Shown here one piece after another: positions 34,240 through 52,299 of a stretch of 64,000 nt of DNA; the stretch's first letter is position 1, and every line of letters begins with the position of its first letter. The stretch covers positions 576,001-640,000 of the forward strand of contig OZ244937.1 of assembly GCA_965222075.1 (NCBI GenBank), in the 5' to 3' direction. The stretch comes from Candidatus Latescibacterota bacterium. GTDB lineage: Bacteria; Latescibacterota; UBA2968; GCA-2709665. A program made the translations under genes and the position numbers. The notes below the pieces were generated by a model. That model ran no database searches. It saw only the letters and a list, made by a program, of their open reading frames with translations, and had not been told where the DNA came from.

Positions 34240-34279
34240 CCAATGTCGACCGCCGGGGATTTTAAGCCGGTTTCTCGGG

Positions 34280-35035
34280 TCACCCTCGCCCGATGTAGGG
34301 CATCTTCGTGGCCATGACGGTTATGAATTGTACATTCGCATCCAGGGGGAGACTGGCCATGTACACGACGGCGCGTGCCACGTCATCTGCGTCCATTCTC
34401 GGCTCAACCGCGACAGATCCATGAGCCTGCGGAACGCCCGCGTTCATTCGTTCTGTCCGCTCGGTTGCCGCGTTGCCGATGTCGATCTGGCCGCATGCAA
34501 TATCGTACTTGCGTCCATCCAGAGATGTTGATCTGGTAAGGCCTGTTATCGCATGCTTGGTGGCCGTATAGGGCGCGGAGTATACCCGTGGGACATGCGC
34601 TGATACGGAGCCGTTATTGATGATGCGCCCCCCCCCGGGCTGCTGATCCTTCATGATCTTGAACGCTTCCTGGGTGCACAGAAATGTGCCGGTCAGGTTG
34701 GTATCTACGACCAATTTCCATTGCTCGTAGGTGAGATCTTCCAGGGGTATGGGCGGTGCGCCGATTCCCGCATTGTTGAACAGAAGGTCGAGCCTGCCAA
34801 AGGTCTCTTGCGTTTTGGCGAACAGGGCTCGAACGGAGGCGATATCCGTCACATCCGTGCGCACCACCAGCGCTCGGGAGCCGGCCGATGCCTCCCTGGC
34901 GGTCGTTTCCAAAGCCTCCACACGACGACCTGCCAGGACAACGGAATACCCCTCGTGAAGAAGCGCAAGCGATGTTCGCTTGCCAATGCCAGATCCCGCA
35001 CCTGTAACAATAGCAATCTTGCTGGGAGAACGCAT
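34280..35035 (-). CDS. Short-chain dehydrogenase/reductase
   Basis: [24 protein letters not shown]; AGGAGG 8 nt upstream. Confidence 0.92.
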
Positions 35036-35244
35036 CTGCCATACCTCCTGATTGTGAGAATCCAGACCGCTGTTACGGAGCCGTTCAGAACCAGAACCCA
35101 TCACGTCCGAGAAATCGGCATAACTTATCGACTAAGCCCCCGGACAAACCGGGGGTCTCAAAGCGGTTGACAATTTTAGAAATATTCGAGAGCCTTCCAA
35201 TGTGAACCATCCAAAGCTCACAGAAAGGGAAAGGAGAGGCTGTC

Positions 35245-35460
35245 GTGAGCAACGTTCAGAGTATACGCCACACGGTCTGGGAATGCAAGTATCATTCCTG
35301 TCTGCCTCCTGCCTGCGCAGTGCCCTGCGCTGCAGGCAGGTCGGCACAGGCAGGTGGTATGGATTCCGAAATGCCGAAGGCAAGCGCTGTATGGACAGCT
35401 TCGCCAGTATGTGGGAGGAGTTCTTCGAGAGCTGGTGCGTCAACGAGAGAGTCGGGTGGC
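35245..35460 (+). pseudogene. tnpA: Y1 transposase TnpA fragment, frameshifted and truncated
   Basis: Removing 35297-35354 gives HTVWECKYHLVWIPKCRRQALYGQLRQYVGGVLRELVRQRESRV; no HUH motif follows. Confidence 0.85.
35297..35354. repeat. Nested palindromic elements (33-bp copy 35308-35340 inside a 25-bp copy)
   Basis: CCTGTCTGCCT[CCTGCCTGCGCAGTGCCCTGCGCTGCAGGCAGG]TCGGCACAGGCAGG. Confidence 0.85.
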
Positions 35461-35583
35461 GTAAAGGTCCGCCCAGCCCCGCACAAGAAAACATTTGACA
35501 ATAACTGAAAACAACTACAAACTACATGGCTATTATGAGTTATCCTGGGCAAAAATCACTTTGCAGTTGGAAAGGTATATTCG

Positions 35584-35784
35584 ATGGATGAAAAACCGGG
35601 CGGTGTACTGACCATCAAGGAGCTGTCTGTCTACCTGAGAATTCCGATGTCAACACTCTACAAACTTGTGCGGGAAGGCAAGATTCCTTCCCAAAAGGTA
35701 GGGCGCCATTGGCGTTTTCGAAAAGAAACCATTGATCGGTGGTTGGACGAAACATGGGCGAAAGAACCGAAACCCGAAGGATAA
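35584..35784 (+). CDS. Excisionase-like HTH_17 DNA-binding protein
   Basis: LTIKELSVYLRI..STLYKL..EGKIPSQKVGRHWRF. Confidence 0.88.
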   Translation: MDEKPGGVLTIKELSVYLRIPMSTLYKLVREGKIPSQKVGRHWRFRKETIDRWLDETWAKEPKPEG

Positions 35785-35789
35785 GAGTG

Positions 35790-36266
35790 ATGGCGGAACC
35801 CCTTGCAGACCAAATCATGCGAAAGGTCAAACAGACCGCCGAGCTCTATCACCGGCTGATATTGGTCGTCGCACCGGCAGGCGCAGGCAAAACCACTGCG
35901 TTGCAGGATGTGCGGGATCGCACTGGTGCGCCCCTGGTAAATGTCAACCTCGAGCTTTCTCGCCGGATGCTGGAGTTGACCAAGCGCCAGCGGGCCTTAC
36001 AGCTGCCTCGTCTTCTCCGAGCGATCGTCAGCAGAGGCGGCGATGAGACGATCCTGCTCGACAACATTGAAGTCACCTTCGACACTGCTCTGAAACAGGA
36101 TCCGCTTCGACTGCTCCAGGGACTCTCCCGCAACAAGACCGTGGTGGCCGCATGGAACGGCACCATCGTTGAACATTCTTTGATCTATGCCGCTCCGGCC
36201 CACCCGGAGTACAGACGCTATCCAATGCAGGATTTTCTGGTGGCAAGCCCGGACGTGACAATATGA
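35790..36266 (+). CDS. brxF: BREX type 3 P-loop protein BrxF
   Basis: [49 protein letters not shown]; position before brxC. Confidence 0.88.
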
Positions 36267-36300
36267 AGACAACAAATTCCACTGCGAGGGAGCAGATACG

Positions 36301-39300
36301 ATGAAATACGGCGACCTGATCCAGTTTGAGCCCATCGAGTCCGTGATCCAATTGCGGGACGCCGACGAAGCGACTGCAGCTCGACAGCTTGTGGAGACCT
36401 ACGTCATATCCGGGGAGATGGCGGAAAAACTGGTGGGCCTGGTCATTCCTCAGCTGCAGTTTGAGCGACCCACCGACAACAAAGGCCTTCTGGTAGTCGG
36501 CAACTACGGCACGGGCAAGTCCCACTTCATGTCAGTAATCTCCGGGCTTGCGGAGAATACCGACCTCGCAGCCAGTCTCAACAATGCCGACGTGGCAGAC
36601 GCTGCCGGAAAAATCGGCGGACGGTTCAAGGTGATCCGCACCGAGATCGGAGCCACCACCATGTCCCTGCGGGACATCCTCGTGGCCGAGTTGGAGGAGC
36701 ATCTTGCGGCGATGGGCGTGAGTTACAGTTTCCCCTCCGCCGACCAGGTATCCAACAACAAACGATCTTTTGAAGAAATGATGACCGCTTTCCACCAGGA
36801 GTTCCCTGACCACGGCCTGCTCCTCGTGGTGGACGAGTTGCTTGATTATCTGCGCGCCCGCAAGGACCAGGAACTCATCCTGGACCTGAACTTCCTTCGT
36901 GAAATCGGCGAGGTTTGCAAAGACCTGCGCTTCCGCTTCATGGCCGGCGTCCAAGAAGCCATCTTCGATAGTCCCCGATTTTCCTTCGTGGCCGACAGTA
37001 TCCGCCGGGTGAAGGATCGGTTTGAGCAAGTACTCATCGCCCGAAAAGACGTCAAGTTCGTAGTAGCTGAGCGGCTGCTCAAGAAGACCGGCGAACAACA
37101 GGCCAGGATACGCCAGTACCTGACACCCTTCAGCAAGTTCTACGGCAACATGAACGAGCGCATAGACGAGTTCGTCCGCCTCTTTCCGGTGCATCCAGAC
37201 TATATCGATACCTTTGAACGGGTGACCGCCGTGGAGAAGCGCGAGGTGCTGAAAACTCTCTCTCTATCCATGAAGAAAATGCTCAACCAGGACATACCGG
37301 ACGACTGTCCCGGGCTCATTGCCTACGACACCTACTGGACAAACCTCCGCGAGAACCCCTCGTTTCGTGCTGTTCCGGATATCAGGGCGGTCATCGACTG
37401 CAGCCAGGTGCTGGAGTCCCGCATCCAGCAGGCATTCACGCGCCCAGCCTATAAACCCATGGCGATGCAGCTCATCCATGCCCTTTCGGTACACCGGCTT
37501 ACCACCGGTGACATCTACGCCACCCTGGGCGCAACGGCCAGGGAGTTGCGTGACGGGCTTTGCCTCTATCAACCGGGCATTGAGGGTTTGGGCGGCGACC
37601 CGGCCGACAATCTGCTCACGCAGGTGGAGACCGTTCTCCGGGAAATCCACAGGACGGTCAACGGGCAATTCATTTCATCGAACTTGGACAACCGGCAGTT
37701 CTATCTCGACCTGAAGAAGACCGACGACTTTGACGCGCTGATCGAAAGGCGTGCCGAGAGCCTCGACGCCTCCCAACTGGATCGTTACTACTACGAGGCC
37801 CTGAAACGGGTCATGGAATGTACGGACCAGACCTACGTGACCGGCTACAAGATCTGGCAGCACGAGCTGGAGTGGTTGGAGCGGAAGGCAGCACGGCAGG
37901 GGTATCTCTTCTTCGGCGCGCCCAACGAACGCTCCACCGCCGTTCCACCGCGGGACTTTTACCTCTATTTCATCCAGCCCTTTGATGCGCCGCATTTCAA
38001 GGATGAAAAAAACTCCGACGAGTTGTTCCTGCGGCTCACCAACACGGGCGACGAATTCCGCACTGCACTCAGAAATTACGCCGCGGCCCTGGACCTGGCT
38101 TCCACTTCATCGGGGCACGCCAAGTCCACCTACGAGTCCAAGTCATCCCATTTTCTGCGGGAACTGGTGCAGTGGCTGCAGAAGCATATGGCAGATGCCT
38201 TCAAGGTCACCTACCAGGGGCGCACCAAGTCGCTCATCGAATGGGCCAAAGGCAAGTCGATCCGGGAACTGTCTGGCATTGGCTCCCATGAGCGCATCAA
38301 CTTCCGTGACCTCGTCAACATTATCGCCGGCGTCTGCCTGGGAGCGCACTTCCGGGATCGGGCACCTGAATATCCCTTCTTCTCGGTGCTCATCACCGGG
38401 TCCAACCGGGACCAGGCCGCACAAGATGCCCTGCGCGCTATTGCCGGCCAGAACCGCACCAAACAGGCGACAGCAGTACTGGATGCGCTCGAACTGCTCG
38501 ACGGCGAACGCTTCGATCCTGACAACTCCAAGTACGCCAAACACATCCTCGCACTGCTTAAGCAGAAAGGCCACGGCCAAGTGGTCAATCGCTCCGAGCT
38601 GATTCACGACGACAAGGGTGTGGAATACATGGACAAGGACCGGCAGCGTCTGGAACCCGAATGGGTTGCTGTCATCCTGGCCGCGCTGGTCTATTCCGGC
38701 GATCTGGTTCTCGCCATTCCGGGCAAAAAGTTCGACGCCATCGGCCTACCGCAGTTGGCAGGGTTCGGCATGGGCGAACTCGCACATTTCAAACACATTG
38801 AGCAGCCCAAGGACTGGGACCTTCCCGCGCTCAAGGCCCTGTTTGAACTGCTCCGTCTCACGCCCGGCTTGGCGCAATTAGTCACCCAGAGCAAGGAGGA
38901 ACCGGTCCAACAGTTGCAGAAAGTCATTTCCGAATTGGTGGAAAAATTGGTGCTTCTGCAGCAGAGCCTGCAAAGCGGTCTGATCTTCTGGGGCCGTAAC
39001 CTGCTGGCCGAGGAAGAGACACAGAAACTTCGCACCCGGCTCGACGAGACCAAGACCTTCCTGGAATCGCTCCAGGCCTATACCTCGCCCGGCAAGCTCA
39101 AGAACTTCCGCTACGATGCCCAGGAGGTCGCGTCCCATCGGGATGGGCTCAATTCCCTGGCCGAGATCGAATCCCTCCAGGAACTGGTGGCCGATCTCGG
39201 CACTACTGCGTCCTTCCTCTCCACCGCCGAGCAGGTGCTGCCTGCGGAACACGAGTGGGTGGGCAAGACGAAAGAGGCGCGTGATGAGGTTCTCGCCCAA

Positions 39301-40029
39301 CTCGGCGATCCGGCCAAGCGCGGCGGCGCCACATTCCGCCAGCAGACCCAGCGCAAATTGGCTGACCTCAAGACGGCATATCTACAGACCTATCTGGGGC
39401 TGCACACGAAGGCGCGGCTGGGCGTGAACGAGGACAAGCGCAAGATCGAGCTGATGAGCGACGAGCGGCTCAAGTTGCTGCAGAAGCTATCCACCATTGA
39501 GTTGATGCCCCGCCAGCATCTGACCGATTTTCAAAATCGTCTGGCCAGATTGAAGAGTTGCTTTGCCCTCATAGAACAAGAGATGGACGCCGCGCCCGTC
39601 TGCCCGCATTGTGGCTTCAAACCAAGCGTGGAGCCGGCCACCACTCCTGCGGGAACGGTGCTGAATGGTTTGGACGACGAACTGGACAAACTGGTCGCAG
39701 ACTGGACCCAAACGCTACTGACCAACCTGGAGGACCCGACTACAAAGGGCAACCTGGATCTGCTCAGGCCCGAACCCAAAAAGCTGGTGAACGGCTTCAT
39801 CGACAAACGGGTTCTGCCGGACGAACTCGACCAGGACTTCATCCGTGCCCTGGACGAGGTGCTTTCCGAGCTCCAGAAGGTACCGGTCAAAACCGCTAAC
39901 CTGCGCGCCGCCCTGCTCTCCGGAGGCTCACCGGCAACGCCGGCGGAAATGAAGAAACGTTTCGAGGACTACCTGGATGAACTAACCAGGGGCAAAGAGC
40001 CGGGCAAGGTGAGGATTGTATTGGAGTAA
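36301..40029 (+). CDS. brxC: BREX type 3 ATPase BrxC (DUF6079)
   Basis: [13 protein letters not shown], Walker A GNYGTGKS, Walker B LVVDE, FPVHP, C-terminal CPHC; 1242 aa. Confidence 0.88.
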
Positions 40030-41006
40030 GAAACGGGGCGCATGTGGCGTTCCGATTTGAAAGAACGATTCCGCCATACTGACCAAGCTACTGACCAACC
40101 CGGTGGCCTTGGGGCGAACTTGGTCACTTCTCCGCTAACCGAGAAGGCGGACTTGTGCAGTGATCAAGTTGGTCTATGGGCGGCAACTTGTTCACTGCAC
40201 AAGTTGAATCAAAACGGGGATGAGAATGACTGGCAACTACGATGAACAGAATCTATTCGACCTGGAGCCTTCCGCCAAGCCGCAGGGGCCGGTGGAATGC
40301 CTGGGCATGACCTTCGAAAACGACGAGAAACGCCGGGAGTATTTCCTGGGGAAACTGCGCGAGAAGCTTAAGGACCCGGAGTTCCGCAAGATCGAGGGAT
40401 TCCCCATTGGCGAGGACGAGGACATCCTGGCACTGTCCGATCCGCCGTATTATACCGCTTGTCCGAATCCTTTCATTGAGGATTTCATCAAGCACTATGG
40501 GAAGCCGTATGACCCGGTTATCGATGATTATCGGCGAGAGCCATTTGCTTCGGATGTGAGCGAGGGAAAGAACGACCCGATCTATAACGTTCACTCCTAT
40601 CACACGAAGGTGCCACATAAGGCTGTCATGCGGTATATCCTTCACTATACACAACCAGGAGATGTCGTTTTTGATGGTTTTGGTGGTACTGGTATGGCTG
40701 GGGTGGCAGCCCAATTATGCGGTAACCGCAGTGTCGTTGAGAGGCTTGGCCTCAGAATTGAGAAAGACGGCACAATTGTTGACGAAAAAGGTCATGCATG
40801 CGCAGTACTTGGTCGACGAAAAACAATCATTAGCGATCTTTCCCCCCTGGCGACCTATGTGTCATCACGATATAACGACTTTGATTCCTCTCAGTATTCG
40901 GACAAGAAATGTCATGATCTAATCAACTCGCTCGAAGCAGATTTCCAAGATTTATACAACACAACAAATCCCCATTCTGGCAGTTCTGGGCGTGCACTTT
41001 TCTATG

Positions 41007-42566
41007 GGGTGTAGCCTCGTTTTTACGCTGCGATTCTGTGAATTGTTATAGGTGTGGTTTGCTGCAGGTACCAGTTCCAGAAAGCATCCCATCGTTTCGA
41101 TTGAACGAGGACTCGTAGGTTGAGGATCCGCTGGCCGCCTTCTCGAGTCCAGCGCATGCCGCTTCTTTTAAGCCGGTGGCCAACGATGGTCTTGGCAGCG
41201 GCCTCCACAGGGCCACTGGCAATGATCAACCCCAAGGCGTGATAGCGAGCGTATTCCATTTTGTCCCGGTTGTTGCGGAAGTAGCCCAGTTCGACGCTCG
41301 CTTGGCGATAGCGTTTTGATCCGCTTGGCAGTTTGCGGCGGTGGTAGGATAGGGAGCGGATCAGGCCCTTTATGGCATTGGGTTCATGGCGCAATTTGTG
41401 CCGCCAAGATCGGTACCAGCGATCTGCTTTCGCCGAGGCCTTGCCGAAAAGATGCTCGGCGGCCTTGGACAGGTGGTGCGCTGCGTGATAGAAGTCCAGA
41501 ATGCGGGTGAACCCGTCGAACACACTTTGCTGGTCTACAGTATGCCAGATCGCTCGTTTGCCGTCGGCCAACACGACCCGGTGGTCATAGCTTCCCTGCT
41601 GCAAGGCCTTTGCCGTCTGGTCCACCAAGCCGTTGACCAGGGTCTCCATCTTCGTCTCGGGCATACGCGCGGCATAGCGCACGTCAACGCGTTGGGGCTC
41701 TTCCGTCTCCGGATGCAGCGGCGTCAGGTAGGTGGCGACCATGCCCACACCCGCCTCCTTCCAGGCCGTGGGCGCGCTGTTGGTGTCCCTATCCATCGGT
41801 CGTTGGGGTGGACGCCCGCGCTTGGGCGCTGGTTCCCGCAAGGGCACGGTGACCCCGTCCCAACTCACCACCAGGGTGTCGGCTTGGGCATTTAGGGGCG
41901 CCGCCTCTTGCAAGGCCAACTCGAGCTGTTGGGTACCGTCCTCGGCACACTGCCCGACGGTGGTCAACAGGTGCTGAATCGCGGTGCGGGAAGGCGGCTC
42001 GGGCAGCACTTCAGCCAAGCTGTCCTCCACTTCGGCCGGGACCAGGCGGGCACTTAGAAACGCCGTCACGCGCTCCAGCGCCGGTACCATGAAACGATTC
42101 ACCATGCCGCAGCGCTCATCCAAAGGCACCCGGCTTGCCCCGCCCCGGTCGTGCTGATACAGCCGTCGTGGCATCACAACCTTGCCCCACAGGGTCATCC
42201 ACTCCTTGTTGACCACTTGCTTGAATCGGTATACCCGATCCTCACTTACCACCGTCTCGTCCGCGATCTCACAGGCCTGCGCCAGGTGTTGGAACCCAGC
42301 CCGACCGATGTCGTCCAAAGAGGCTCGAAGCTCGTCCATCACCTCGCCGAATGCCTCTGGTCCTGATTGCTCCGACTGCAGGTGTTGCTCCCACTGGAGG
42401 ACATTTTCTTGCAATTTCGCTATACAAGCACTCAGATTCTGTGTATCTTCCATCTGGGACCCCCTTCCGGGTTTTGGGCTTAAGTGTATACACCCAAAAA
42501 TACATTCGTACCCGGATTTGGGGGCCCTCTTTTTGAAAAAAGCTGCGTAAATCAAAACCTACACCC
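41007..42566 (-). mobile_element. Insertion sequence, ISKra4/ISLre2-like (Mutator-type DDE), 1560 bp
   Basis: Imperfect terminal IRs GGGTGTAG-N7-TTTACGCWGC; 8-bp TSD TTTCTATG at 40999-41006 and 42567-42574. Confidence 0.92.
41023..42453 (-). CDS. ISKra4-like DDE transposase
   Basis: VSWDG, LADG, LDFYHA..HL, SGPVEAAAK..VGHRLKRSGMRW; likely start MEDTQ at 42453. Confidence 0.88.
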   Translation of the reverse strand: MEDTQNLSACIAKLQENVLQWEQHLQSEQSGPEAFGEVMDELRASLDDIGRAGFQHLAQACEIADETVVSEDRVYRFKQVVNKEWMTLWGKVVMPRRLYQHDRGGASRVPLDERCGMVNRFMVPALERVTAFLSARLVPAEVEDSLAEVLPEPPSRTAIQHLLTTVGQCAEDGTQQLELALQEAAPLNAQADTLVVSWDGVTVPLREPAPKRGRPPQRPMDRDTNSAPTAWKEAGVGMVATYLTPLHPETEEPQRVDVRYAARMPETKMETLVNGLVDQTAKALQQGSYDHRVVLADGKRAIWHTVDQQSVFDGFTRILDFYHAAHHLSKAAEHLFGKASAKADRWYRSWRHKLRHEPNAIKGLIRSLSYHRRKLPSGSKRYRQASVELGYFRNNRDKMEYARYHALGLIIASGPVEAAAKTIVGHRLKRSGMRWTREGGQRILNLRVLVQSKRWDAFWNWYLQQTTPITIHRIAA

Positions 42567-44576
42567 TTTCTATGTATGGTCCGATGTATTCTCATGTCCC
42601 GATTGCACTTATTCCTCAAGTTTATTCGAATTTGCAGTAGACCAATCTACATACAAGCTAAAGAATAGTTTTCTCTGTCCTTCGTGTAACGCTGAGCTTG
42701 CCAAGGAGAATCTGGACCGCGTTTGGACGACACAAACTAGGCAGGTTGGTGATGGGTTCGCAAAGGTGGCGAAATGCCAACTTGTACAAGTCTGCGCAAA
42801 ATTTGGTGACCGCACCGTTCGATTTTCTCCAACGCAGTATGACCGTGATGTGCTCAAATCTGCCGAACGAAGGGGATTCGATTGGGTCCCTAAAAAAGAA
42901 TTTCCACTTGGTCGGCAAACGCGCAAAGTAAAATCAGGCTCAGGAATAGCCACAATCGCACAGATGTTTACACCTCGTGCGCTTGCTATTATTAGTCGTG
43001 CTTGGAGTCAGATCACTGAGGTAGAACGGAGCGCTTATAATTCCCCGGCTCTCTTCTTGCTTTCTTCAACTCTAACACTTCTCTCGAAACGAGAACGCTA
43101 CCGAGATGGAACAGGAAAGGGGGCGCAGTCGGGAACCCTTTACGTTCCGTCGCTTCAGATAGAGAAGAATGCGTTTGACGTTATCGAGAGAAAGAGAAAA
43201 ACGTTTGCGGCGCTGAACCTCAAGACGAAGCGGTGCAACGCAGTCGTCACCTGCCAATCTCACAACGACCTACGAAACATAGCGTCAAATTCAATTGACT
43301 ACATCTTCACTGATCCACCGTTCGGTGAATCACTCCAGTACGGCGAGCTCAATTTCTTTCATGAGGCCTGGTTCCGTATTCACACTCGGTTGGAGAATGA
43401 TTGTGTACTTAACTACGTTCATGAGAAGGATTTAGAATTCTACAAGAGGCTAATGTCCGGAGCTTTTGGCGAGGCATATAGAATCCTCAAGCCAGGAAGG
43501 TGGATAACTGTAGAGTTCCACAACTCACAAAACAGTGTATGGATAGCAATACAAGAAGCTCTTTGGCATGCAGGATTCACTATCGCTGATGTTCGAGTAT
43601 TGGACAAGAAGCAAGGCACATTCAATGTTGTTAATCGAGCTGGTGCCGTTAAACAAGACCTCGTGATTTCTGCTTACAAACCGAACGGCGGTTTGGAGGA
43701 ACGTTTCAAGATTACTGCCGGGACGGAAGATGGACTATGGGACTTTGTCCGAACCCACCTGAAACAGCTTCCGGTTTTCGTTTCCAAGGACAGTCAAGCT
43801 GAAGTCATTGCGGAACGGCAGAACTTCCTACTCTTCGACCGCATGGTGGCTTTCCATGTCCAGCGTGGTGTAACGGTTCCCATGTCAGCAGCGGAGTTCT
43901 ACGCTGGCCTGGAACAACGCTTTCCTCTGCGCGACGGTATGTATTTCCTACCCGACCAGGCTGCGGAGTACGACAGAAAACGGATGACGGTCAAGGAGGT
44001 TCTCCAGCTTCAGTTTTTCGTTTCCGACGAGACATCGGCCATCCAGTGGCTCAAGCAGCAGCTTACCAAGAAGCCCCAGACCTTCCAGGACATCCATCCG
44101 CAGTTCCTGAAGAAAATTGGCGGCTGGCAGAAGCATGAAAAGGCTCTGGAGCTTTTCGAACTGCTGGAGCAGAACTTCCTGTGCTACGACGGCAGGGGCG
44201 AAGTGCCCAGCCAGATTCATAGCTACCTCTCCTCGAACTTCAAGGAGCTGCGCAATCTTAAAAAGGACGATCCCGCGCTAAAGGCAAAGGGTAAGAACCG
44301 CTGGTACGTGCCCGATCCGAACAAGGCCGGTGACCTGGAGAAGCTCCGCGAACGAACCCTGATGCGCGAGTTCGAGGAGTACCGTGAATCCAAACAGAGA
44401 CGCCTGAAGGTGTTTCGCCTCGAAGCCGTCCGCGCTGGATTCAAAAAGGCATGGCAGGAACGCGACTACACCACCATCATCGCCGTAGCTCAAAAAATAC
44501 CCGAAAACATTCTACAGGAAGACACCAAGCTTCTTATGTGGTACGACCAGGCGGTAACACGAACGGGAGATGAGGC

Positions 44577-47345
44577 ATGAAAGAGCGGAGATGGAACGGT
44601 GCGCGATGGTGGAAGTGTGATTTTCACACGCATACCCCGGCCTCCAACGATTATGGAAAGGGCCAGAATCAGACGGCTCTTCAGAAACGATCCGCTAAGG
44701 AATGGCTGCTCGACTATATGCGTGCCGGCGTCGATTGCATTGCGATCACAGACCATAACACCGGGGCGTGGATTGATTGTGTCAAGGTAGCACTCGGTGA
44801 ACTCGAATCAGAGAATCCGGAGGGTTTCAGACCGCTTCACGTTTTCCCGGGCGTGGAGATTTCGGTCAGCGGCGGCGTACATCTATTGGCAATTCTGGGG
44901 TGCGATAAGAAAACGTCGGACATCGACTCACTGCTCGGTGCCGTTGGATTTCCTTCTGAACACAAAGGTTCAAGCGACGCCGTCACAACAAAGTCGTTTA
45001 TTGATGTGGTCGAAACGACCGTATCGAACGGTGGCATCCCAATTCCCGCCCATGTGGATGAAGAAAACGGGCTTTTTCGATTCCAGGGGACGACATTACA
45101 GCAAATATTGCAGTGCAAGGACATTTTCGCCATAGAGCTACGGGATCCGGCGTATCAGAAACCACAGCTTTACGTCAGCGAAAAACTGCGCTGGACTGAA
45201 ATACTCGGCTCGGACGCCCATCATCCCTCTGGTGGCGCGGGACGGTCATATCCGGGCAGTCACTTCACCTGGATCAAGATGGGGTCGCCCAGTATTGAGG
45301 GGGTGCGGTTAGCCTTATTGGACGGTGCGCTTTCCGTACGCCGGTCCGACCAGGATACGGATGACCCAAACGAACACGCGCCGTTTGCGTTGGATTCTAT
45401 TGAGGTTTCACAAGCACGCTACATGGGTCATTCCCAATCCTTCACTATTGGGTTCAACCCCTGGTTCAACGCTATCATCGGAGGCCGGGGCACAGGTAAA
45501 TCGACTGTTGTCGAGTTCCTTCGTATTGCCCTTCGACGGGAGGCTGAATTGCCGGAGACGTTGCAACCGGAGTTTGAACAGTATAACCGAGTCTATCAAG
45601 ACCGAGAAGACAGCGGACTGCTTACAGAAGATGCTGCCATCCGAGTGATTTGTCGGAAAGACGGCGACCGGTTTCGCGTCCAGTGGAATTCGGTCGGCGA
45701 CCTTGAACCTATCGAACGAGAAGTAAATGGACAATGGCGACGTACAGAAGGCGATATTCAGCAACGATTTCCCGTGCGAATCTACAGCCAGAAGCAAGTG
45801 TTCCAACTTGCCAAAACGCCGCTTGCGTTGCTTAAAGTTATCGATGAGGCCCCCGATGTCGATCAGCATTCCTGGTCTGAAAAATGGAAGATACAGGAAA
45901 GCCGGTTTCTTTCCCTGCGCGCCAGAGCCAGAGAAATCACGGCAGGTCTTGCAGAGGAACCGCGTCTTCGGGGGGAGTTGGACGACGTCAAACGAAAGCT
46001 GGATATCTTTGAACAGTCGGGACACGCCGAGATCCTTAAGGCCTTTCAAGAACGGACCCGCCAACAGCGAGAGGTCGCGGAGTGGGAAAAAAGCTGGACT
46101 GGTGTAGGAACGCGGTTGCGTAAAGTCGCGGCCTCAATCGTGCCGGATCATTTGGATGAGACCTCTTTCAACTCAGATTTAGCCTCAGACCATGAATTGC
46201 GAGGGCGCGCCGCCAAGACGCACAACCACTTGGATGAAATCCGCAAATCGGTCGAAGATCTTGCATCGAAAGCGGATAAAGTTGTCGCCGAGTGGCGAGA
46301 AAGCAAGGATGATTCATCTTGGAAACAGAGCGTTGATGCTGCCACGCAAGCCTACCAGGAATTGACAGAGAATCTGTCTCAAAAAGGGGCCGGCGACCCT
46401 GCGGCTTACGGCGAATTCGTACAGCGTCGGCAAGTCATTGAGCAGCGGCTGAAGGAACTGGACGAGCGAAAAAAACAGGTTGATGATCTGAACGGTGAGG
46501 CAGATACGTGCTTGCAGCATTTGCTGGAAATTCGCCGGGAGTTGACTGCGTCTCGACGAAAGTTCCTCAAGGCCGTCCTGAGCGGCAACCAGTATGTCCA
46601 GATACAGGTTGTTCCTTATGGAGCGTACGAAATGGTCGAAAGCGAGTTTCGACGATTACTCCAAAGAGGAGACGGAGGTTTTGAGAAAGACATCGGGTCG
46701 CCGAATGGCGGGGGATTGCTTGGTGAACTTTATAGGAACGGCAATGGTGCCGAGGATGTTGAACAGAATCTTGCGAGCATCAAGGACAAGATCAGGAAGA
46801 TTATCTTGAAACAATACGATACGGGAGCATTGGCAGACAAACGTTTCGCGACCCACATTGACAGACTCCCGCCCGAAGCCATTGACCGCCTCGACCTGTG
46901 GTTTCCGGAAGATTCTTTAGAGGTTCAATACAGCGCAATGGGCGATGGACAGCGTTTCCGGTCAATACAGGAAGGCTCGCCCGGCCAGAAGACCGCGGCG
47001 CTCCTGGCTTTTCTGCTTTCCTACGGTGATGAACCACTGATTATGGACCAGCCGGAGGACGATTTGGACAACCACCTGATCTATGACTTGATCGTAACCC
47101 AATTGCGGGAGGTCAAACGCCGTCGACAGGTCATTGTGGTCACGCACAACGCGAATATCGTCGTCAATGGTGACGCCGAATTGGTAGTAGCCCTCGCCGC
47201 GCGTGGCGGGGAAACACAGAAAGAGTGCGAAGGCAGTCTGCAGGAGCAACAGGTAAGAGAGACGATTTGTGCAGTGATGGAGGGTGGACGCAAGGCCTTT
47301 GAAGATCGCTACCGGCGCATCGCACTGGAAGGACGCCATGTTTAA
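44577..47345 (+). CDS. PHP phosphoesterase fused to coiled-coil ABC/SMC-like ATPase (Ppl/TrlF-like)
   Basis: PHP motifs DFHTHT, ITDHN, GVEI, AHVD, GSDAH; Walker A GGRGTGKS, signature SPGQ, Walker B MDQPEDDLD, H-loop VTHN. Confidence 0.85.
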   Translation: MKERRWNGARWWKCDFHTHTPASNDYGKGQNQTALQKRSAKEWLLDYMRAGVDCIAITDHNTGAWIDCVKVALGELESENPEGFRPLHVFPGVEISVSGGVHLLAILGCDKKTSDIDSLLGAVGFPSEHKGSSDAVTTKSFIDVVETTVSNGGIPIPAHVDEENGLFRFQGTTLQQILQCKDIFAIELRDPAYQKPQLYVSEKLRWTEILGSDAHHPSGGAGRSYPGSHFTWIKMGSPSIEGVRLALLDGALSVRRSDQDTDDPNEHAPFALDSIEVSQARYMGHSQSFTIGFNPWFNAIIGGRGTGKSTVVEFLRIALRREAELPETLQPEFEQYNRVYQDREDSGLLTEDAAIRVICRKDGDRFRVQWNSVGDLEPIEREVNGQWRRTEGDIQQRFPVRIYSQKQVFQLAKTPLALLKVIDEAPDVDQHSWSEKWKIQESRFLSLRARAREITAGLAEEPRLRGELDDVKRKLDIFEQSGHAEILKAFQERTRQQREVAEWEKSWTGVGTRLRKVAASIVPDHLDETSFNSDLASDHELRGRAAKTHNHLDEIRKSVEDLASKADKVVAEWRESKDDSSWKQSVDAATQAYQELTENLSQKGAGDPAAYGEFVQRRQVIEQRLKELDERKKQVDDLNGEADTCLQHLLEIRRELTASRRKFLKAVLSGNQYVQIQVVPYGAYEMVESEFRRLLQRGDGGFEKDIGSPNGGGLLGELYRNGNGAEDVEQNLASIKDKIRKIILKQYDTGALADKRFATHIDRLPPEAIDRLDLWFPEDSLEVQYSAMGDGQRFRSIQEGSPGQKTAALLAFLLSYGDEPLIMDQPEDDLDNHLIYDLIVTQLREVKRRRQVIVVTHNANIVVNGDAELVVALAARGGETQKECEGSLQEQQVRETICAVMEGGRKAFEDRYRRIALEGRHV

Positions 47346-48594
47346 CAGCCTGGAAGAACTGCTGCAGAAGATACGCCTTGGAGAAGATACTTCGCTGGAA
47401 CTCAAGGCCGTCCGGTTCAGGGGCGGGCGGGTTTCCGATCCGAGTCGCAATGCTCTGGCCGACGAGCTGGCGGCTATCGCCAATACGCACGACGGTGTGC
47501 TTGTTCTGGGTGTGGACGACAAGACGCGAGACATCGTCGGCATTCCGATAGATGGCCTCGAAACCGTTGAACGCTATGTCTATGAAATCTGCAATGAGAG
47601 CATCAAACCGCCTGTTTTGTTCCGCTCGTTTCGCATGCAACTTCCCGACAGTACCGGTGCTTTGCAAGCGGTGCTCAAAATAGAGATTCCACGCAGTCTT
47701 TTCGTTCACAACAGTTCAGGGAGATATTTCTATCGGCAAGGAAGTTCAATACGAGAGATGCCCTCCGATTACCTGGCACGGCTGTTTCAGCAGCGAAGCC
47801 AGGCCCGCTTGATTCGATTCGAGGAACAGCCGGTACCGCAATCGGGTATCGACGATTTATCGGAAAAACTGTGGACCAACTATACATCACGATCCGATGA
47901 ATCCGATGACATCGTGCTCCTTAAACGCGGTCTTTTGTCGAAGGAAGAAGGCGGTGCAGTGCGGGCTTCGGTCGCCGGTGTTTTGTTCTGCTGCGGGGAG
48001 CCAGAGCGCTTTTTGCCCAATGCCTATATTGAAGCCGTGCGCTATCGCGGGAAAAAGCAGGATTCCAATTATCAGGTAGACGCCCAAAAAATTTACGGCC
48101 CGCTGAATCAACAGATTGAACAAGCAATGACCTTTCTCAGGAAAAACCAGACGGTCTCAGCCGTAAAAATTCCGCATCGGGTCGAAGTGCAGCAGTTCAG
48201 CGAAAGAGCGGTTTTTGAAGCGATTGTCAATGCTGTGGCTCACCGCGATTATTCCATTTTCGCCTCGAAAATACGGTTCTTTATGTTTGAAGATCGGTTG
48301 GAAATCTACTCGCCAGGCACTCTCCCGAATACCGTGACCATTGACAGCATCTCCCTCCGTCAGGCTACCCGAAACGAACTGATTACCAATCTGCTTGCAG
48401 AGACGTCAGTGGCGGAAACGGTCGGCAATGTGGGACGTAGTTTTTATATGGAAAAGCGGGGCGAGGGTGTTCCAATCATTTTAGACGAGAGTGAAAAACT
48501 TTCCGGAAAGAAGCCAGTTTATCGACTTATTGACGACTCCGAACTGTTACTAACCATTTTTTCGGGGAGTATGGAACGTGCGGATGAGCATTGA
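47338..48594 (+). CDS. Schlafen/AlbA_2 domain plus HATPase_c_4 (RecG-C-like) protein
   Basis: GEDTSLELK, AAIANT, LVLGVDD; EAIVNAVAHRDY, LEIYSPG, RN, MEKRGEG. Confidence 0.85.
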   Translation: MFNSLEELLQKIRLGEDTSLELKAVRFRGGRVSDPSRNALADELAAIANTHDGVLVLGVDDKTRDIVGIPIDGLETVERYVYEICNESIKPPVLFRSFRMQLPDSTGALQAVLKIEIPRSLFVHNSSGRYFYRQGSSIREMPSDYLARLFQQRSQARLIRFEEQPVPQSGIDDLSEKLWTNYTSRSDESDDIVLLKRGLLSKEEGGAVRASVAGVLFCCGEPERFLPNAYIEAVRYRGKKQDSNYQVDAQKIYGPLNQQIEQAMTFLRKNQTVSAVKIPHRVEVQQFSERAVFEAIVNAVAHRDYSIFASKIRFFMFEDRLEIYSPGTLPNTVTIDSISLRQATRNELITNLLAETSVAETVGNVGRSFYMEKRGEGVPIILDESEKLSGKKPVYRLIDDSELLLTIFSGSMERADEH

Positions 48595-48627
48595 TGCAAG
48601 CGGTTGATGTTCAGGATCGGATGCACA

Positions 48628-50634
48628 ATGAGTAACTGGCGCGACCAGATCCTAAAAGAATTTACTCCCAACGTAGCCCCTCTGACCCTGGTCGCCGACC
48701 CTGATGGGCTGCTTTTGGAAGAAGGTATTCTTGCGGGTATACGCGAGCGGGGCTTTGAACTGATTCCGTTCGAGGACCCTATCGCCTTTCGGTATGCCTA
48801 CGAATCCAGGTTCCGTTCCCGCTGGGACCAGGGTGAGCAGACGGACTTGGTGGTCGTACTGCACTCCGCGGCGAGCGATCTCAACTGCTTGCCATACGAC
48901 CTGCTCCAAGCCGGTCGTCGGCTGTCGTTCAGCCTTGGCGAGATTTTTCCCAACCTGAGCTACCCCATTATTACCGCCCTGGACCGTAGAGATCTGGACG
49001 CGCTCTACGAAGCTCAGAAGCGGCACGCTCCCGGTGTGCTGGGCGATAACGCCACAAAGGAATTTGTTCTGCGGCATGTTTTCGAAATTGCACCGGAGCT
49101 CATCAGAAAGCCGTCCGATCTGCTGCGCGTGCTCCTGCGTCGCCATTACCGGAAACAGCGCATCCCGGCTCTGCTTGATGAACGCTTTGTTCAGGTTCTC
49201 CGCCAACAGGACGGTTTTGATGATTGGCCCCTCGAAACGATCATCCCGGATCGGGAGGCTTTTTTCGCCTTTCTCCAGGAACGCTGGCCCACCTTTCTCA
49301 ATCGGTCGGCAAAACAGGATAGCACTGGTGTTCACGAGGATGAGAAACCCTACGGCTTTGAGTTCCCCGGTCCTTCGGATTTGCCCTTCGACCATGATGA
49401 CATTCGTGTCTACATCGACAACCTGTTCCTTGAAGGGCTTCTCGAACCCGTACCCCACGAGCAAGCCGAATCCTTGTCGAACTCCTGGCTCGCCATTGGC
49501 ATCCGGACGGACGACCAGGCGGACCGGACGCGCCGGGTGGATGGTCTCCTCAAAGCCTTGGCATCCGACATTCCGAAGGAGGACACGCGGCACGACGACT
49601 GGTTCCGCTTCGCCGGAACCTGGGCCGAACTGGTTGTTCTGGCTCTGGATTCGGATGCGATGTTGCCGGAGCCAGCCCGTCAGAAGATAGAAGCGCTCCA
49701 AGCTCAAATCGATGCCACGCTCCTGCCCTGGCTGACAAAACGCTACGCGGGGTTAGCCAACCTGCCGCCGGTTCCGCCGGTCATGCTTCACCACATTCCT
49801 CGCTTTCTTTCCAGGCACATCAACGACGCCAAGAAACACAAGGTGGCGCTCGTCCTGGTGGACGGCCTTTCGCTGGATCAGTGGATCGTAATCCGAAAGG
49901 AGCTTGCCAGGCAACGCCCCAAATATCGGTTCCGGGAAAACGCAGTGATTGCCTGGATTCCGACCATCACGTCTGTTTCGCGTCAGGCGGCCTTTGCAGG
50001 AAAGCCACCCATCTATTTTCCGAACAGCATCCATACGACGGACAAAGAGCCGGCATTGTGGGCGCAATTCTGGGTGGACCAGGGGTTGACACAGCAAGAA
50101 ATCGCATACGCCAGGGGGCTGGGTGACGGCCCCCTGGAAAGTGTGGAGGAGATTGTTGCCCGGCCAAGGACACGCGTCGTCGGTCTGGTTGTCGATAAGG
50201 TGGACAAAATCATGCACGGCATGGAACTCGGCGCTGCGGGGATGCACAACCAGGTCCGACAGTGGGCCCGTCAAGGGTTCATAGCGAATCTTGTCGATCT
50301 GCTTCTGGAAAACGGATTCCGTGTCTACCTGGCTTCGGATCATGGAAACATCGAGGCGGCCGGGTGTGGCCGTCCTGCTGAGGGAGCCGTTGCCGACGTG
50401 CGCGGTGAGCGCGCTCGAATTTACCCCGAACCATTGCTGCGCGATCAGGTCAAAGAGCGATTTCCAGAAGCTATTGATTGGCCACCAATTGGACTGCCGG
50501 AAGACTATTGGCCTCTGCTCGGCCCCGGCCGCTCCGCGTTTGTACGTGAGACCGAGCGCCTTGTCGGTCACGGCGGAGCATCGCTTGAAGAACTGGTCGT
50601 CCCTCTTGTTCAAATCGAAAGGAGGGACACATGA
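48628..50634 (+). CDS. pglZ: BREX type 3 phosphodiesterase PglZ
   Basis: WRDQILKEF..TLVADPDGLL, LVLVDGL, PTITSVSRQ, ASDHGN, HGGASLEE. Confidence 0.92.
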   Translation: MSNWRDQILKEFTPNVAPLTLVADPDGLLLEEGILAGIRERGFELIPFEDPIAFRYAYESRFRSRWDQGEQTDLVVVLHSAASDLNCLPYDLLQAGRRLSFSLGEIFPNLSYPIITALDRRDLDALYEAQKRHAPGVLGDNATKEFVLRHVFEIAPELIRKPSDLLRVLLRRHYRKQRIPALLDERFVQVLRQQDGFDDWPLETIIPDREAFFAFLQERWPTFLNRSAKQDSTGVHEDEKPYGFEFPGPSDLPFDHDDIRVYIDNLFLEGLLEPVPHEQAESLSNSWLAIGIRTDDQADRTRRVDGLLKALASDIPKEDTRHDDWFRFAGTWAELVVLALDSDAMLPEPARQKIEALQAQIDATLLPWLTKRYAGLANLPPVPPVMLHHIPRFLSRHINDAKKHKVALVLVDGLSLDQWIVIRKELARQRPKYRFRENAVIAWIPTITSVSRQAAFAGKPPIYFPNSIHTTDKEPALWAQFWVDQGLTQQEIAYARGLGDGPLESVEEIVARPRTRVVGLVVDKVDKIMHGMELGAAGMHNQVRQWARQGFIANLVDLLLENGFRVYLASDHGNIEAAGCGRPAEGAVADVRGERARIYPEPLLRDQVKERFPEAIDWPPIGLPEDYWPLLGPGRSAFVRETERLVGHGGASLEELVVPLVQIERRDT

Positions 50635-51413
50635 ACGGACGGAAAACTCAGATCGGCTTCAGCCAACGTATCCGACTTGAGTGGTTCGAACAAACAGCCA
50701 ATTTGATACTTGCTGGGAACGACAAGACCATAATCAACGATACACTCCAGGATCTATTGCGGGACAAGGTATCCGTCGGTGGTAAATCCATTAGGGGCAA
50801 CAGGGAAAGGGTAATTACTATTCTGTTGAAGACTTGGCTCACCGTTTCTCGTGAACTGGAACAGCTACGGGACGAGGGCCTGGAAATACTCCAGGGTCTC
50901 CCCCGCAAAGACAGAATTGCTGTTCACTGGGCTATGGCGCTGGCAGCTTATCCCTTTTGGGGCGTGGTCGCCGCGCACACGGGCAGGCTCTTGCGGCTTC
51001 AAGGAACAGCCGCGGCAGCGCATGTTCAGCGACGGATCAAGGAGGAATACGGAGAACGCGAAACCGCATCACGGGCTGCTCGGCGTGTGCTTCGTTCGTT
51101 CATCGATTGGGGTGTCTTGAACGAGACGAATGACAAAGGCGTCTATGAACAAGGGAAACAATACTCGGTTGAGGAACCCAGGCTCATCGCCTGGATGGTG
51201 GAGGCGTCTCTCCGTGCTCGTTCGAACGGTTCTGCCGCTATAAGAGACCTGCTAGACAGTCCAAGCATCTTTCCATTCCACCTGGCCCACATCTCAGCCG
51301 AGCATGTGGCATCCCTCTCACCTCGCCTGGATATCCTACGGCACGGTCTGGATGATGATCTTGTGATGCTGTGTGAAGAAGGTCAGGCCGGCGTGAAGAG
51401 AGGGGCAAAATGA
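50631..51413 (+). CDS. brxA: BREX type 3 BrxA-like protein
   Basis: QIGFSQRIRLEW, AAYPFW, YGERET..RAARRVLRSFIDWGV; terminal operon position, ATGA overlap. Confidence 0.7.
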   Translation: MNGRKTQIGFSQRIRLEWFEQTANLILAGNDKTIINDTLQDLLRDKVSVGGKSIRGNRERVITILLKTWLTVSRELEQLRDEGLEILQGLPRKDRIAVHWAMALAAYPFWGVVAAHTGRLLRLQGTAAAAHVQRRIKEEYGERETASRAARRVLRSFIDWGVLNETNDKGVYEQGKQYSVEEPRLIAWMVEASLRARSNGSAAIRDLLDSPSIFPFHLAHISAEHVASLSPRLDILRHGLDDDLVMLCEEGQAGVKRGAK

Positions 51414-51455
51414 CCTTTACTGTCTGCCCTTCAGAGCAGATGGGGTGGGAGTGGA

Positions 51456-52262
51456 ATGGCCAATTTCTTTGAACAGGTTCAAGAAAAGGTCGAGCGTCGG
51501 ATTTCTAAACGTGTGCTCAAGGCCGTCGCGTCTCTGTTTACTGCCTCCCTCCTGCTGATGGTCCTGGGAGGGACCGCCGCCACCTTGGAATACCGGACCA
51601 ACTGGATTGCAAAGTGGGTCGGCAATGTGTTAACAGATACCAATGCCCGCCGGCGCACAGTAGGAGGTGTCTGGGTGCAGCTTCGGGCGCGGGCGGAGGC
51701 GCAGGAGACGTTCGACGGTGGGGCAGCGGTTTCTCTGCCCGAAAGTAGAGAGGGGCTTCCGGAGGCGGTCTCGGCCGGCCGGTTTGAGATGGAGCGGGTA
51801 CCGGAAACGGGGATGCCCGGGTTCGTGGCGGTCTGGCGGACTCCCATTGGCTCAGGAGAGCAGCGGGATATGCCTGAATTGGTGGAGAGTCTGCGGATTT
51901 TCCGGGCGGGTCTGGCGCTGCTGGAGGCAGCCGCGCTTCCGGATGTGCGGTATCGAGGGCGGGTGCAGCAGGAGGTTGCAGCGCTCTACCGGCAGGTGGG
52001 GGGGGTGGACGAAGTGGTGCAGGTCGCTGCGGATTCGGTGGTGGCGGCGGTTGCTGCGGAACTGGCACGGGAGATTACGGACCGGCTGCGGCGTGAGGAG
52101 CAGGCGGTGGTGCTAAAGGATTATCGGGCCGGTCGCGTGGGCCAGATCCTCCTGCAGCGGGGGCTGGGGCGCTATGAGGGGGAGGTCTCCTACCATGACC
52201 CGGAAACACCAGGCGTAAGCTTTGAGATTGCGCCGGAACAGGTAGCCCGGATTTTCCGGTGA
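51456..52262 (+). CDS. Hypothetical membrane-anchored protein
   Basis: N-terminal hydrophobic helix, host-like codon usage. Confidence 0.65.
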   Translation: MANFFEQVQEKVERRISKRVLKAVASLFTASLLLMVLGGTAATLEYRTNWIAKWVGNVLTDTNARRRTVGGVWVQLRARAEAQETFDGGAAVSLPESREGLPEAVSAGRFEMERVPETGMPGFVAVWRTPIGSGEQRDMPELVESLRIFRAGLALLEAAALPDVRYRGRVQQEVAALYRQVGGVDEVVQVAADSVVAAVAAELAREITDRLRREEQAVVLKDYRAGRVGQILLQRGLGRYEGEVSYHDPETPGVSFEIAPEQVARIFR

Positions 52263-52277
52263 GGCAGGGATCATCCT

Positions 52278-52289
52278 GGGGGGGGGGGG
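52278..52289 (+). repeat. Intergenic G12 homopolymer
   Basis: ATCCT-G12-AGGAT just upstream of the PBP1A start. Confidence 0.8.
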
Positions 52290-52299
52290 AGGATTTTCC

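Follow-up and report, generated by a model that had tools for sequence, protein, structure and literature searches.

Ppl is reportedly a single-gene anti-phage system of the PHP-ATPase kind, a description attributed to Gao et al. 2020, and PrrC is a latent tRNA-directed nuclease, with an anticodon nuclease fold, that resides within type I restriction-modification (R-M) loci. Here, we describe a locus comparable to both, which lies at positions 35790 to 51413 of a 64,000-nucleotide stretch (the window) of contig OZ244937.1 from a Candidatus Latescibacterota bacterium. It is a type 3 bacteriophage exclusion (BREX) locus, in which two genes encoding a PHP/ABC ATPase and a Schlafen protein occupy the place of the helicase gene brxHII. 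We put at about 75% the probability that this region is a type 3 BREX eroded twice, which carries an intact and self-sufficient two-gene defense cassette, TrlF-TrlG. As with PrrC and PARIS, a latent tRNA-directed nuclease would be encoded in or beside a restriction-type system, and as in PARIS (AriA-AriB) an ABC ATPase is paired with a nuclease; the nuclease folds differ, however, being Schlafen here, an anticodon nuclease in PrrC and TOPRIM in AriB.

As judged from sequence, these two genes are the TrlF-TrlG operon, which was initially reported from Photorhabdus. The name TrlF goes back to Photorhabdus laumondii, in which trlR-trlF-trlG is called the 'temperature restriction locus' (Hapeshi et al. 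2020, PMC7554251). In both loci, a large PHP protein (which in Photorhabdus bears the annotation histidinol phosphatase) is followed by a protein with AlbA_2 and HATPase_c_4 domains, mis-annotated there as RecG, and a Yersinia ruckeri plasmid is named in that report just as Y. ruckeri plasmid TrlG homologues were found here. In contrast to the pair of the window, which lies in BREX, the Photorhabdus operon lies between polA and dsbA, and the TRL-type plasmid copies, which are proteobacterial, are only 26-28% identical to the window TrlG. Moreover, the main text of PMC7554251 gives a temperature-restriction phenotype and never mentions phage.

TrlF of the window shares with Ppl the architecture of a PHP domain and an ABC ATPase. 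It differs in being paired with a Schlafen gene, while Ppl is described as acting alone, and in falling below the curated cut-off of the NCBIfam Ppl model NF042955 (595.5 vs 1000 bits). TrlG, in turn, carries the Ex4(E/D)xK site of the bacterial Schlafens (pSlfn), whose genes are found in defense islands and whose commonest architecture (34%) joins Slfn to a histidine-kinase-like domain (Taboada et al., bioRxiv 10.1101/2025.07.24.666596). The systems reported there to defend are, however, a DUF262 fusion and an Ig-like fusion and not the kinase-like class, and the main text of the preprint names no ATPase, PHP or BREX partner.

Type 3 BREX loci with embedded effectors have also been described (PMC12839542, NAR 2026). 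They share with the window the core genes brxF, brxC, pglXI, pglZ and brxA, and they harbor Schlafen-HisK-wHTH genes and other nucleases. Nevertheless, their Schlafen carries a winged helix-turn-helix (wHTH), which makes it closer to a gene found between brxC and pglXI in relatives of the window locus than to the TrlG of 418 amino acids (aa), and the main text mentions neither PHP nor Ppl. In a modularity-network preprint (10.1101/2025.09.30.679545), PHP comes up solely in connection with another system, and Ppl, Schlafen and embedded genes are not mentioned in the report that defines Hma (PMC8565338). In literature searches and in the main texts, the supplements of PMC12839542 excluded, we found no report naming a PHP-ATPase as the partner of a BREX-linked Schlafen and none calling TrlFG an anti-phage system.

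Results

The genes of the locus run in the order brxF-brxC-pglXI-trlF-trlG-pglZ-brxA on the plus strand. The first-pass annotation had given this order, and all of its junctions match the coordinates of the open reading frames (ORFs) and the family scans; the gene calls rest on the ORF list and on scans with Pfam, PADLOC and NCBIfam profiles. The gene trlF (44577-47345) encodes a 922-aa relative of Ppl with a PHP phosphoesterase and an SMC/Rad50-like ABC ATPase, and its ATG at 44577 overlaps the TGA of pglXI (44578-44580) in an ATGA. It overlaps by 8 bp (47338-47345) with trlG (47338-48594), whose 418-aa product joins a Schlafen/AlbA_2 nuclease domain to a GHKL-type HATPase_c_4 domain. In agreement with the first-pass annotation, no helicase gene lies between pglXI and pglZ: at the expected place of brxHII, only a 33-bp spacer without ORF (48595-48627) separates the stop of trlG from the ATG of pglZ. 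When brxHII was searched genome-wide with PDLC02500, the best match (373 bits) covered the helicase core only (positions 87-639 of 933) and was an HmaA-like SNF2 helicase encoded elsewhere (HmaA 538 bits), whereas the genuine BrxHII of a related locus scored 1592 bits. Such core-only matches are generic, since the model matches 14/14 control genomes. The host assembly has a stated completeness of 97.6%, and genome-wide negatives apply to its assembled part.

TrlF scored well above the cut-off of the NCBIfam model NF045780, 'TrlF family AAA-like ATPase' (641.2 bits; cut-off 350), and matched the PADLOC Ppl model end to end (positions 4-892 of 894; 488 bits). Conservation of its motifs was judged in an alignment of 25 family members. 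The PHP metal ligands (D15, H17, H19, E94, H102, H159, D213), the Walker A motif (G302-S309), the Q-loop (Q405), the signature (S801, G803, Q804), the Walker B motif (D824, E827) and the H-loop (H857) were all invariant or nearly so. Among solved structures, the family profile found heads of SMC and Rad50 proteins as well as a single PHP phosphoesterase, and the alignment profile gave a weak match to AriA chains (E 4e-5).

TrlG is recognized by PF04326 (55.9 bits; cut-off 25.3) and PF13749 (68 bits). The ExxxxExK motif that had been read in the AlbA_2 gene is present as E16, E21 and K23; across 25 sequences, E16 and K23 are invariant, E21 is kept in at least 90%, and the NAxxHRDY and GxG boxes are invariant. 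Against solved chains, the family profile matched SLFN14, SLFN12, SLFN11 and SLFN5 (E 3e-10 to 6e-6), and in a single-sequence alignment EDTSLELK and GVDD of TrlG align with ESASIEFK and GVDD of the solved Schlafen chain 5yd0. The ratio of nonsynonymous to synonymous substitution rates (dN/dS) is 0.14-0.26 for trlF and trlG.

The two genes also recur together elsewhere. TrlF loci were picked by TrlF score within a single phylum, in which 44 of 168 genomes have a match over the cut-off, and the proportions describe those samples only. Among the 29 best loci besides the window's own, 28 have a TrlG homologue directly downstream of TrlF; the sole exception (L106) has none within its 1.5-kb flank. 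Two of the 29 are truncated copies (L113, L116) and two others have a stop in trlF (L101, L111). Sequence of pglXI or pglZ is present in the flanks of only four of these 29 loci, that is five of 30 with the window's own. The host genome has three TrlF-family genes above the cut-off. One of them belongs to a second TrlF-TrlG pair (L006, G000:C1:5221000-5233500; 27% and 29% identity), in which the TrlG paralogue starts 9 bp after TrlF; this pair lies downstream of an HmaA-like SNF2/NOV_C helicase gene (HmaA 538 bits) and a DUF1016_N (PDC-S02) fragment. The genes upstream also include an NsnB/HEC-03B-like ATPase with a 173-aa partner. Another paralogue is solitary (L007, G000:C1:1546583-1549264; 37% identity; PADLOC Ppl 377 bits), has no Schlafen neighbor and is bordered by a gene for an ABC transporter on one side and one for a PhyH dioxygenase on the other. 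In addition, a type I R-M locus (L008, G000:C1:1837800-1850900) contains a Schlafen gene that resembles trlG (587 aa; 45% identity to the copy in the window). It lies there between hsdM and hsdS together with a HEC-01A-like ABC ATPase gene (576 bits), and hsdS is fused to a Polbeta nucleotidyltransferase domain.

A plasmid collection searched with the window TrlG yielded 26 records. On Pseudomonas and Y. ruckeri plasmids, the TrlG matches overlap genes annotated 'TrlF family AAA-like ATPase', and a Burkholderia thailandensis plasmid has a stand-alone pair beside a relaxase (53.5% identity); the pairs on all these plasmids lie outside BREX. By its distribution, TrlF-TrlG is a conserved, autonomous and mobile module that is mostly found outside BREX. 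The earlier suggestion of a module embedded in BREX holds for the pair as cargo, given the pairing in the other loci of the phylum, the plasmid pairs and a slot shared with other defense systems.

This slot was surveyed in 77 related loci from many phyla, gathered by similarity to the window PglZ (61-88% identity), so that the proportions describe loci similar to this PglZ, not all type 3 BREX. BREX genes were mapped, the ORFs of the pglXI-pglZ interval were clustered and 57 cluster representatives were scanned. The largest cluster, a gene of about 930-950 aa that ends 8 bp into pglZ, is BrxHII. Across the 77 loci, the interval holds at least 17 kinds of defense system. PADLOC recognized Gabija, Kiwa, SIR2-HerA, Dsr1, DRT UG5-nitrilase, PsyrTA, IetAS and AbiU, as well as HEC-02, HEC-03, HEC-05, PDC-S19, PDC-S28, PDC-M34, PDC-M45, ThsA-like and TIR proteins; other genes of the slot encode an Mrr-STAND NTPase, a HEPN_AbiU2 protein and several unknowns. 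A close TrlF-TrlG pair (76-83% identity to the window's) is present in L034 and L078, distant pairs in L018, L042 and L085, and TrlF alone in L037, with all TrlF genes of the slot above the TrlF cut-off where scored; TrlG-like genes stand alone in L051 and L043. The pair accompanies an intact 951-aa BrxHII in L085 and a split BrxHII in L018, and TrlF accompanies an intact BrxHII in L037. Because TrlF genes thus coexist with brxHII, the pair is one cargo among many and not a stand-in for the helicase.

Other features of these intervals were observed along the way. Between brxHII and pglZ, six loci have a small gene for a 126-aa PD-(D/E)XK_3 protein (L041:315-695, L013:9549-9968 and relatives), and in four loci the same gap holds a gene for a 139-aa '23S rRNA intervening sequence' four-helix protein. 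A three-gene cargo recurs (L031:4579-7201; L065, L072, L074, L083) that consists of an HEC-03B/NsnB-like ATPase, HEC-03A and a 229-aa RNA ligase (PF09414); the position of the RNA ligase, next to what is presumed to be a nuclease system, hints at a partner for repair or immunity. There is also a second variable slot, between brxC and pglXI. In 18/28 related loci, it contains a gene, or its remnant, for a 503-634-aa protein with Schlafen/AlbA_2, HATPase_c_4 and Fic-like_C (wHTH) domains (for example L119:5992-7896 and L009:4635-6146; remnants in L029, L034, L118), which is probably the Schlafen-HisK-wHTH gene reported in BREX loci (PMC12839542). The corresponding interval of the window (40030-40219) is a gap of about 194 bp with no trace of a Schlafen-wHTH gene.

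The state of brxHII was determined in the 77 loci by tblastn with a BrxHII representative, seven rows being re-labelled by eye. The gene was intact in 30 loci, split in 5, partly visible at a contig end in 16, represented by a remnant only in 11, absent in 11 and of unknown state in 4. It is thus lost in 22/73 informative loci, 11 of them with remnants, a proportion near the 23% that follows from the published frequency (PMC12839542). Indeed, since that report gives BrxHII in only 77% of type 3 systems (702 taxa), helicase-less type 3 BREX is already on record. The remnants are N-terminal stubs in L014, L028, L020, L049, L074, L024, L032 and L034, a C-terminal stub in L009, and genes with internal deletions in L016 and L078. 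In L078, the remnant covers model positions 5-177 and 865-926 directly after an 80%-identical Slfn gene, and in L034 it is a 31-residue stub (positions 5-35) before pglZ. As the remnants differ in shape, several separate deletions of brxHII have taken place. Among the helicase-less loci examined, 11/13 have no stop in any visible BREX gene, and dN/dS between the window and helicase-less loci is 0.09-0.18 for brxC and pglZ. One helicase-less locus (L023) has no cargo at all, its pglXI-pglZ gap being 92 bp. Loci with an intact pglXI and no brxHII are found.

The disruption of pglXI noted in the first-pass annotation is due to a single insertion sequence (IS), and the frame is otherwise whole. 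The 5' part (40220-41006; codons 1-262 and one base) matches PDLC02541 at positions 3-241 (368 bits), its ORF being listed as 40220-41014. The 3' part (42575-44580) matches positions 250-918 (938.5 bits), and its listed ORF (42484-44580) starts inside the IS. The element is a 1560-bp ISKra4-like IS on the minus strand (41007-42566), with imperfect 25-nt terminal inverted repeats (41007-41031 and 42542-42566), flanked by two exactly matching 8-bp copies of the target-site duplication TTTCTATG (40999-41006 and 42567-42574). Its transposase, encoded at 41023-42453 of the minus strand and reaching 42555 if read from the first TTG, scored just under the cut-off of the ISKra4 model NF033572 (192.3 bits; cut-off 205). 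Four copies of the IS are present in the genome, with nucleotide identities of 100, 100, 99.9 and 92.9%, and with copies so similar the element is active. At G000:C1:3028543-3031553, one ISKra4-like copy is located within or next to a more distantly related version of this transposase, pieces of which (31% and 51% identity) flank it on both sides, so that the elements appear nested.

In silico removal of the IS and one duplication copy restores an open frame of 930 aa, which aligns without gaps to PglXI of L119 (90% identity). Public contigs were mapped on 40300-43300. Those of run X1, which may be the sample of origin, span both IS junctions. Runs X2 and X3 belong to two further studies, and each has a contig in which 40998 is followed immediately by 42567, so that 1568 bases (the IS and one duplication copy) are skipped; this is an empty-site allele in near-identical DNA. 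Since the insertion is polymorphic across samples, the break of pglXI is recent and does not reflect long-term decay. Decay with helicase loss had also been considered for this locus: it stands for brxHII, in view of the deletion remnants in 11 loci, and fails for pglXI. A group II intron or another known RNA as the cause of the interruption was ruled out by an Rfam scan of 34000-53000, which gave no match at E up to 0.1.

The complete order brxF-brxC-pglXI-trlF-trlG-pglZ-brxA, with a single open pglXI frame and no brxHII, is also found in two other genomes, G107 (L118) and G050 (L119). L034 has the same order as far as visible, with the brxHII stub before pglZ, and in L078 the pair is followed by the internally deleted BrxHII. 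Around the pair, G146 and G059 have no more of the BREX genes than ~30 codons from the end of pglXI and 34-127 codons from the start of pglZ. The junction formed by the trlG stop, the spacer and the pglZ start is homologous in the window, G107, G050, G059 and G146, and the junction between the end of pglXI and the start of trlF is homologous in these five and in L034. The nucleotide identity of the window to G107 is 94-100% from the 3' end of pglXI through the first half of trlF and 73-79% in pglZ; to G050, pglXI shows 92-97%, trlF about 75-80% and the 3' end of trlG 94-95%. This identity profile is a mosaic. Within trlF, stretches at window positions 45275-45875 are 99-100% identical in nucleotides to L118, while the flanking BREX genes are 44-82% identical. 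The near-identity of trlF with that of G107, which is labelled as the same class, indicates a very recent exchange between distant hosts. Moreover, pglXI tails are duplicated in L020, L033, L043 and L121 and BrxHII heads in L017, L059 and L072, and these duplications look like scars of cassette exchange.

Among the remaining genes of the locus, brxF (35790-36266) encodes the BREX-3 P-loop protein (NF033453 191.5 bits, cut-off 50; PDLC02496 254 bits); its longest ORF begins at 35739, and the ATG at 35790 agrees with the family model. The gene brxC (36301-40029; 1242 aa) matches PDLC02482 over its full length (2064 bits) and PF19557 DUF6079 (1886 bits). Downstream of the cassette are pglZ (48628-50634), for the BREX-3 phosphatase (NF033449 883.7 bits, cut-off 250; PDLC02558 1057 bits), and brxA (50631-51413; PDLC02444 341 bits). 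BrxF, BrxC/PglY, PglZ and BrxA of type 3 BREX are thus all present, and an intact PglXI and BrxHII are missing. Directly 3' of brxA, a 268-aa ORF (51456-52262) has no match in Pfam, PADLOC or NCBIfam.

Discussion

The structural and evolutionary account given above, which covers the IS, the gene identities, the module, the slot, the loss of brxHII and the shared architecture, is one that we hold with good confidence. Every element is known in kind: the TrlFG operon (2020), the Ppl-type nuclease-ATPases, the bacterial Schlafens (2025), and both helicase-less type 3 BREX and BREX-embedded effectors (2026). The locus is a clear example of these kinds and reveals no new BREX subtype.

How the cassette would act can be sketched tentatively, with odds that we put a little short of even, by analogy with the described systems. 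TrlF may serve as the sensor of a DNA or nucleotide cue and restrain TrlG until that cue appears. Upon a phage cue, the Schlafen RNase TrlG would cut tRNA through its Ex4ExK site and lead to growth arrest, that is abortive infection; the PHP nuclease of TrlF may also attack phage DNA. The cassette would work independently of BREX and would not replace BrxHII. In E. coli, Ppl is described as a 3'-5' ssDNA exonuclease that bound NTPs inhibit and 3'-OH ends activate (PMC12904381), and bacterial Schlafens cleave tRNA via the Ex4(E/D)xK site and cause abortive infection (bioRxiv 10.1101/2025.07.24.666596). In Photorhabdus, the component that arrests growth is TrlG: the bacterium grows at 36 °C when trlG has acquired point mutations, stops or IS insertions, and no trlF mutant was recovered (PMC7554251). 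As no trlF mutants were among about 30 heat-tolerant clones in that work, a restraining role of TrlF fits better than an activating one.

Several points weigh against this picture of an intact cassette that works on its own in an eroded BREX. The window pair differs from the Photorhabdus operon in having no small upstream regulator trlR, for which there is no room because the ATG of trlF overlaps the pglXI stop. The inference that TrlF is the sensor and restraint comes from a single published screen, which yielded no trlF mutants. The IS lies upstream of trlFG in the same operon and may cut off their transcription. Single in-frame stops are present in BrxC of L118 and in TrlF of L119, both of the same architecture as the window, so some loci of this architecture are decaying. 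Lastly, in a FastTree tree of 75 PglZ proteins, the label brxHII present or lost needs 12 changes, at least 8 of them forced by well-supported branches, and the count of independent losses is approximate because the locus recombines.

Among other explanations, the one that survives best is compatible with the preferred reading. BrxHII might be dispensable, so that a helicase-less type 3 BREX would still methylate and perhaps restrict, whatever its cargo. We regard this as possible, at odds of about one in three. The losses in 22 of the informative loci, the changes required on the PglZ tree, the visible BREX genes kept open in most helicase-less loci under low dN/dS, and the published frequency of BrxHII all speak for it. 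Each loss may, however, be younger or older than the divergence over which dN/dS was measured. By analogy with BrxL of type 1 BREX, whose loss may end restriction while methylation persists for a time, loss of BrxHII may also abolish restriction while methylation lingers.

A guard of the kind of PrrC or PARIS, in which TrlFG would be coupled to BREX and fire once BREX is blocked by an inhibitor from the phage, for instance a DNA mimic of the Ocr type, seems unlikely to us. Effectors inside BREX loci have been proposed as backups, and Schlafen-HisK-wHTH genes are linked to BREX or BREX-related loci in at least 1017 taxa (PMC12839542). In the host genome alone, TrlG-type genes are found in three settings: type 3 BREX, the vicinity of Hma, and a type I R-M locus. 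Nevertheless, the pair does not occur regularly with the system it would guard. Most TrlFG pairs adjoin no BREX gene, and the idea is weakened because only five of the 30 sampled loci, the window included, have BREX flanks. In addition, the position in the slot alone implies no coupling to BREX, since the slot holds at least 17 unrelated systems, and the cassette persists here despite a doubly disabled BREX.

The preferred reading also accounts for the spread of the cassette. One ancestral deletion probably joined trlG to pglZ, with loss of brxHII in the ancestor of the cassette lineage. The block made of the pglXI 3' end, trlF, trlG and the 5' end of pglZ, which five genomes share, has probably been moved between type 3 BREX loci since then by recombination in its flanks, and brxHII would be removed wherever it lands. 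In a bolder version, it may be, although we consider it improbable, that the block has the pglZ start and not the brxHII start as its right homology arm, so that its entry overwrites brxHII and spreads a helicase-less, still selected type 3 BREX, with TrlFG as a PARIS-like backup in which the Schlafen tRNase is kept in check by TrlF and released upon a phage cue or a BREX block.

Plain decay, in which the whole locus including the cassette is a dead remnant, appears still less probable. It would account for the missing brxHII and the interrupted pglXI, for the lack in the window of the Schlafen-wHTH gene that most related loci have between brxC and pglXI, and for the in-frame stops in L118 and L119. 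However, all other ORFs of the locus are open with every catalytic motif conserved, dN/dS stays far below 1, the element in pglXI arrived recently and is polymorphic, and nearly all helicase-less loci (11/13) are free of stops in their visible BREX genes. A helicase-independent subtype of type 3 BREX, which the first-pass annotation had offered as one reading and in which TrlF and TrlG took over the job of BrxHII and became core components, is very doubtful: the pair does lie at the exact place of brxHII with operon-like overlaps, the same architecture with an open pglXI does recur in G107, G050 and L034, and brxHII-less loci with an intact pglXI are common and have BREX genes with low dN/dS, but replacement of BrxHII by the pair is not supported, in view of TrlF-family genes beside brxHII in L085, L037 and L018, of the pieces of brxHII that L078 and L034 retain behind the pair, of the lack of any BREX flank in 24 of the 29 other sampled pairs, and of helicase-less loci with unrelated cargo or none, such as L023.

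The reading that we prefer, a twice-eroded type 3 BREX with an intact TrlF-TrlG cassette, bears on the evolution of type 3 BREX. The pglXI-pglZ interval is a recombination hotspot, with duplicated pglXI tails and brxHII heads, and brxHII has been deleted from it repeatedly. A single gene pair links the temperature-restriction operon trlFG of Photorhabdus, the nuclease-ATPase Ppl and the bacterial Schlafen tRNases, and this pair is seen as mobile cargo in type 3 BREX, beside an Hma helicase and, in part, within type I R-M loci. Should TrlFG prove to defend against phage as a pair, with the ABC ATPase restraining the Schlafen RNase, the way in which the most frequent class of bacterial Schlafens works would have an explanation.

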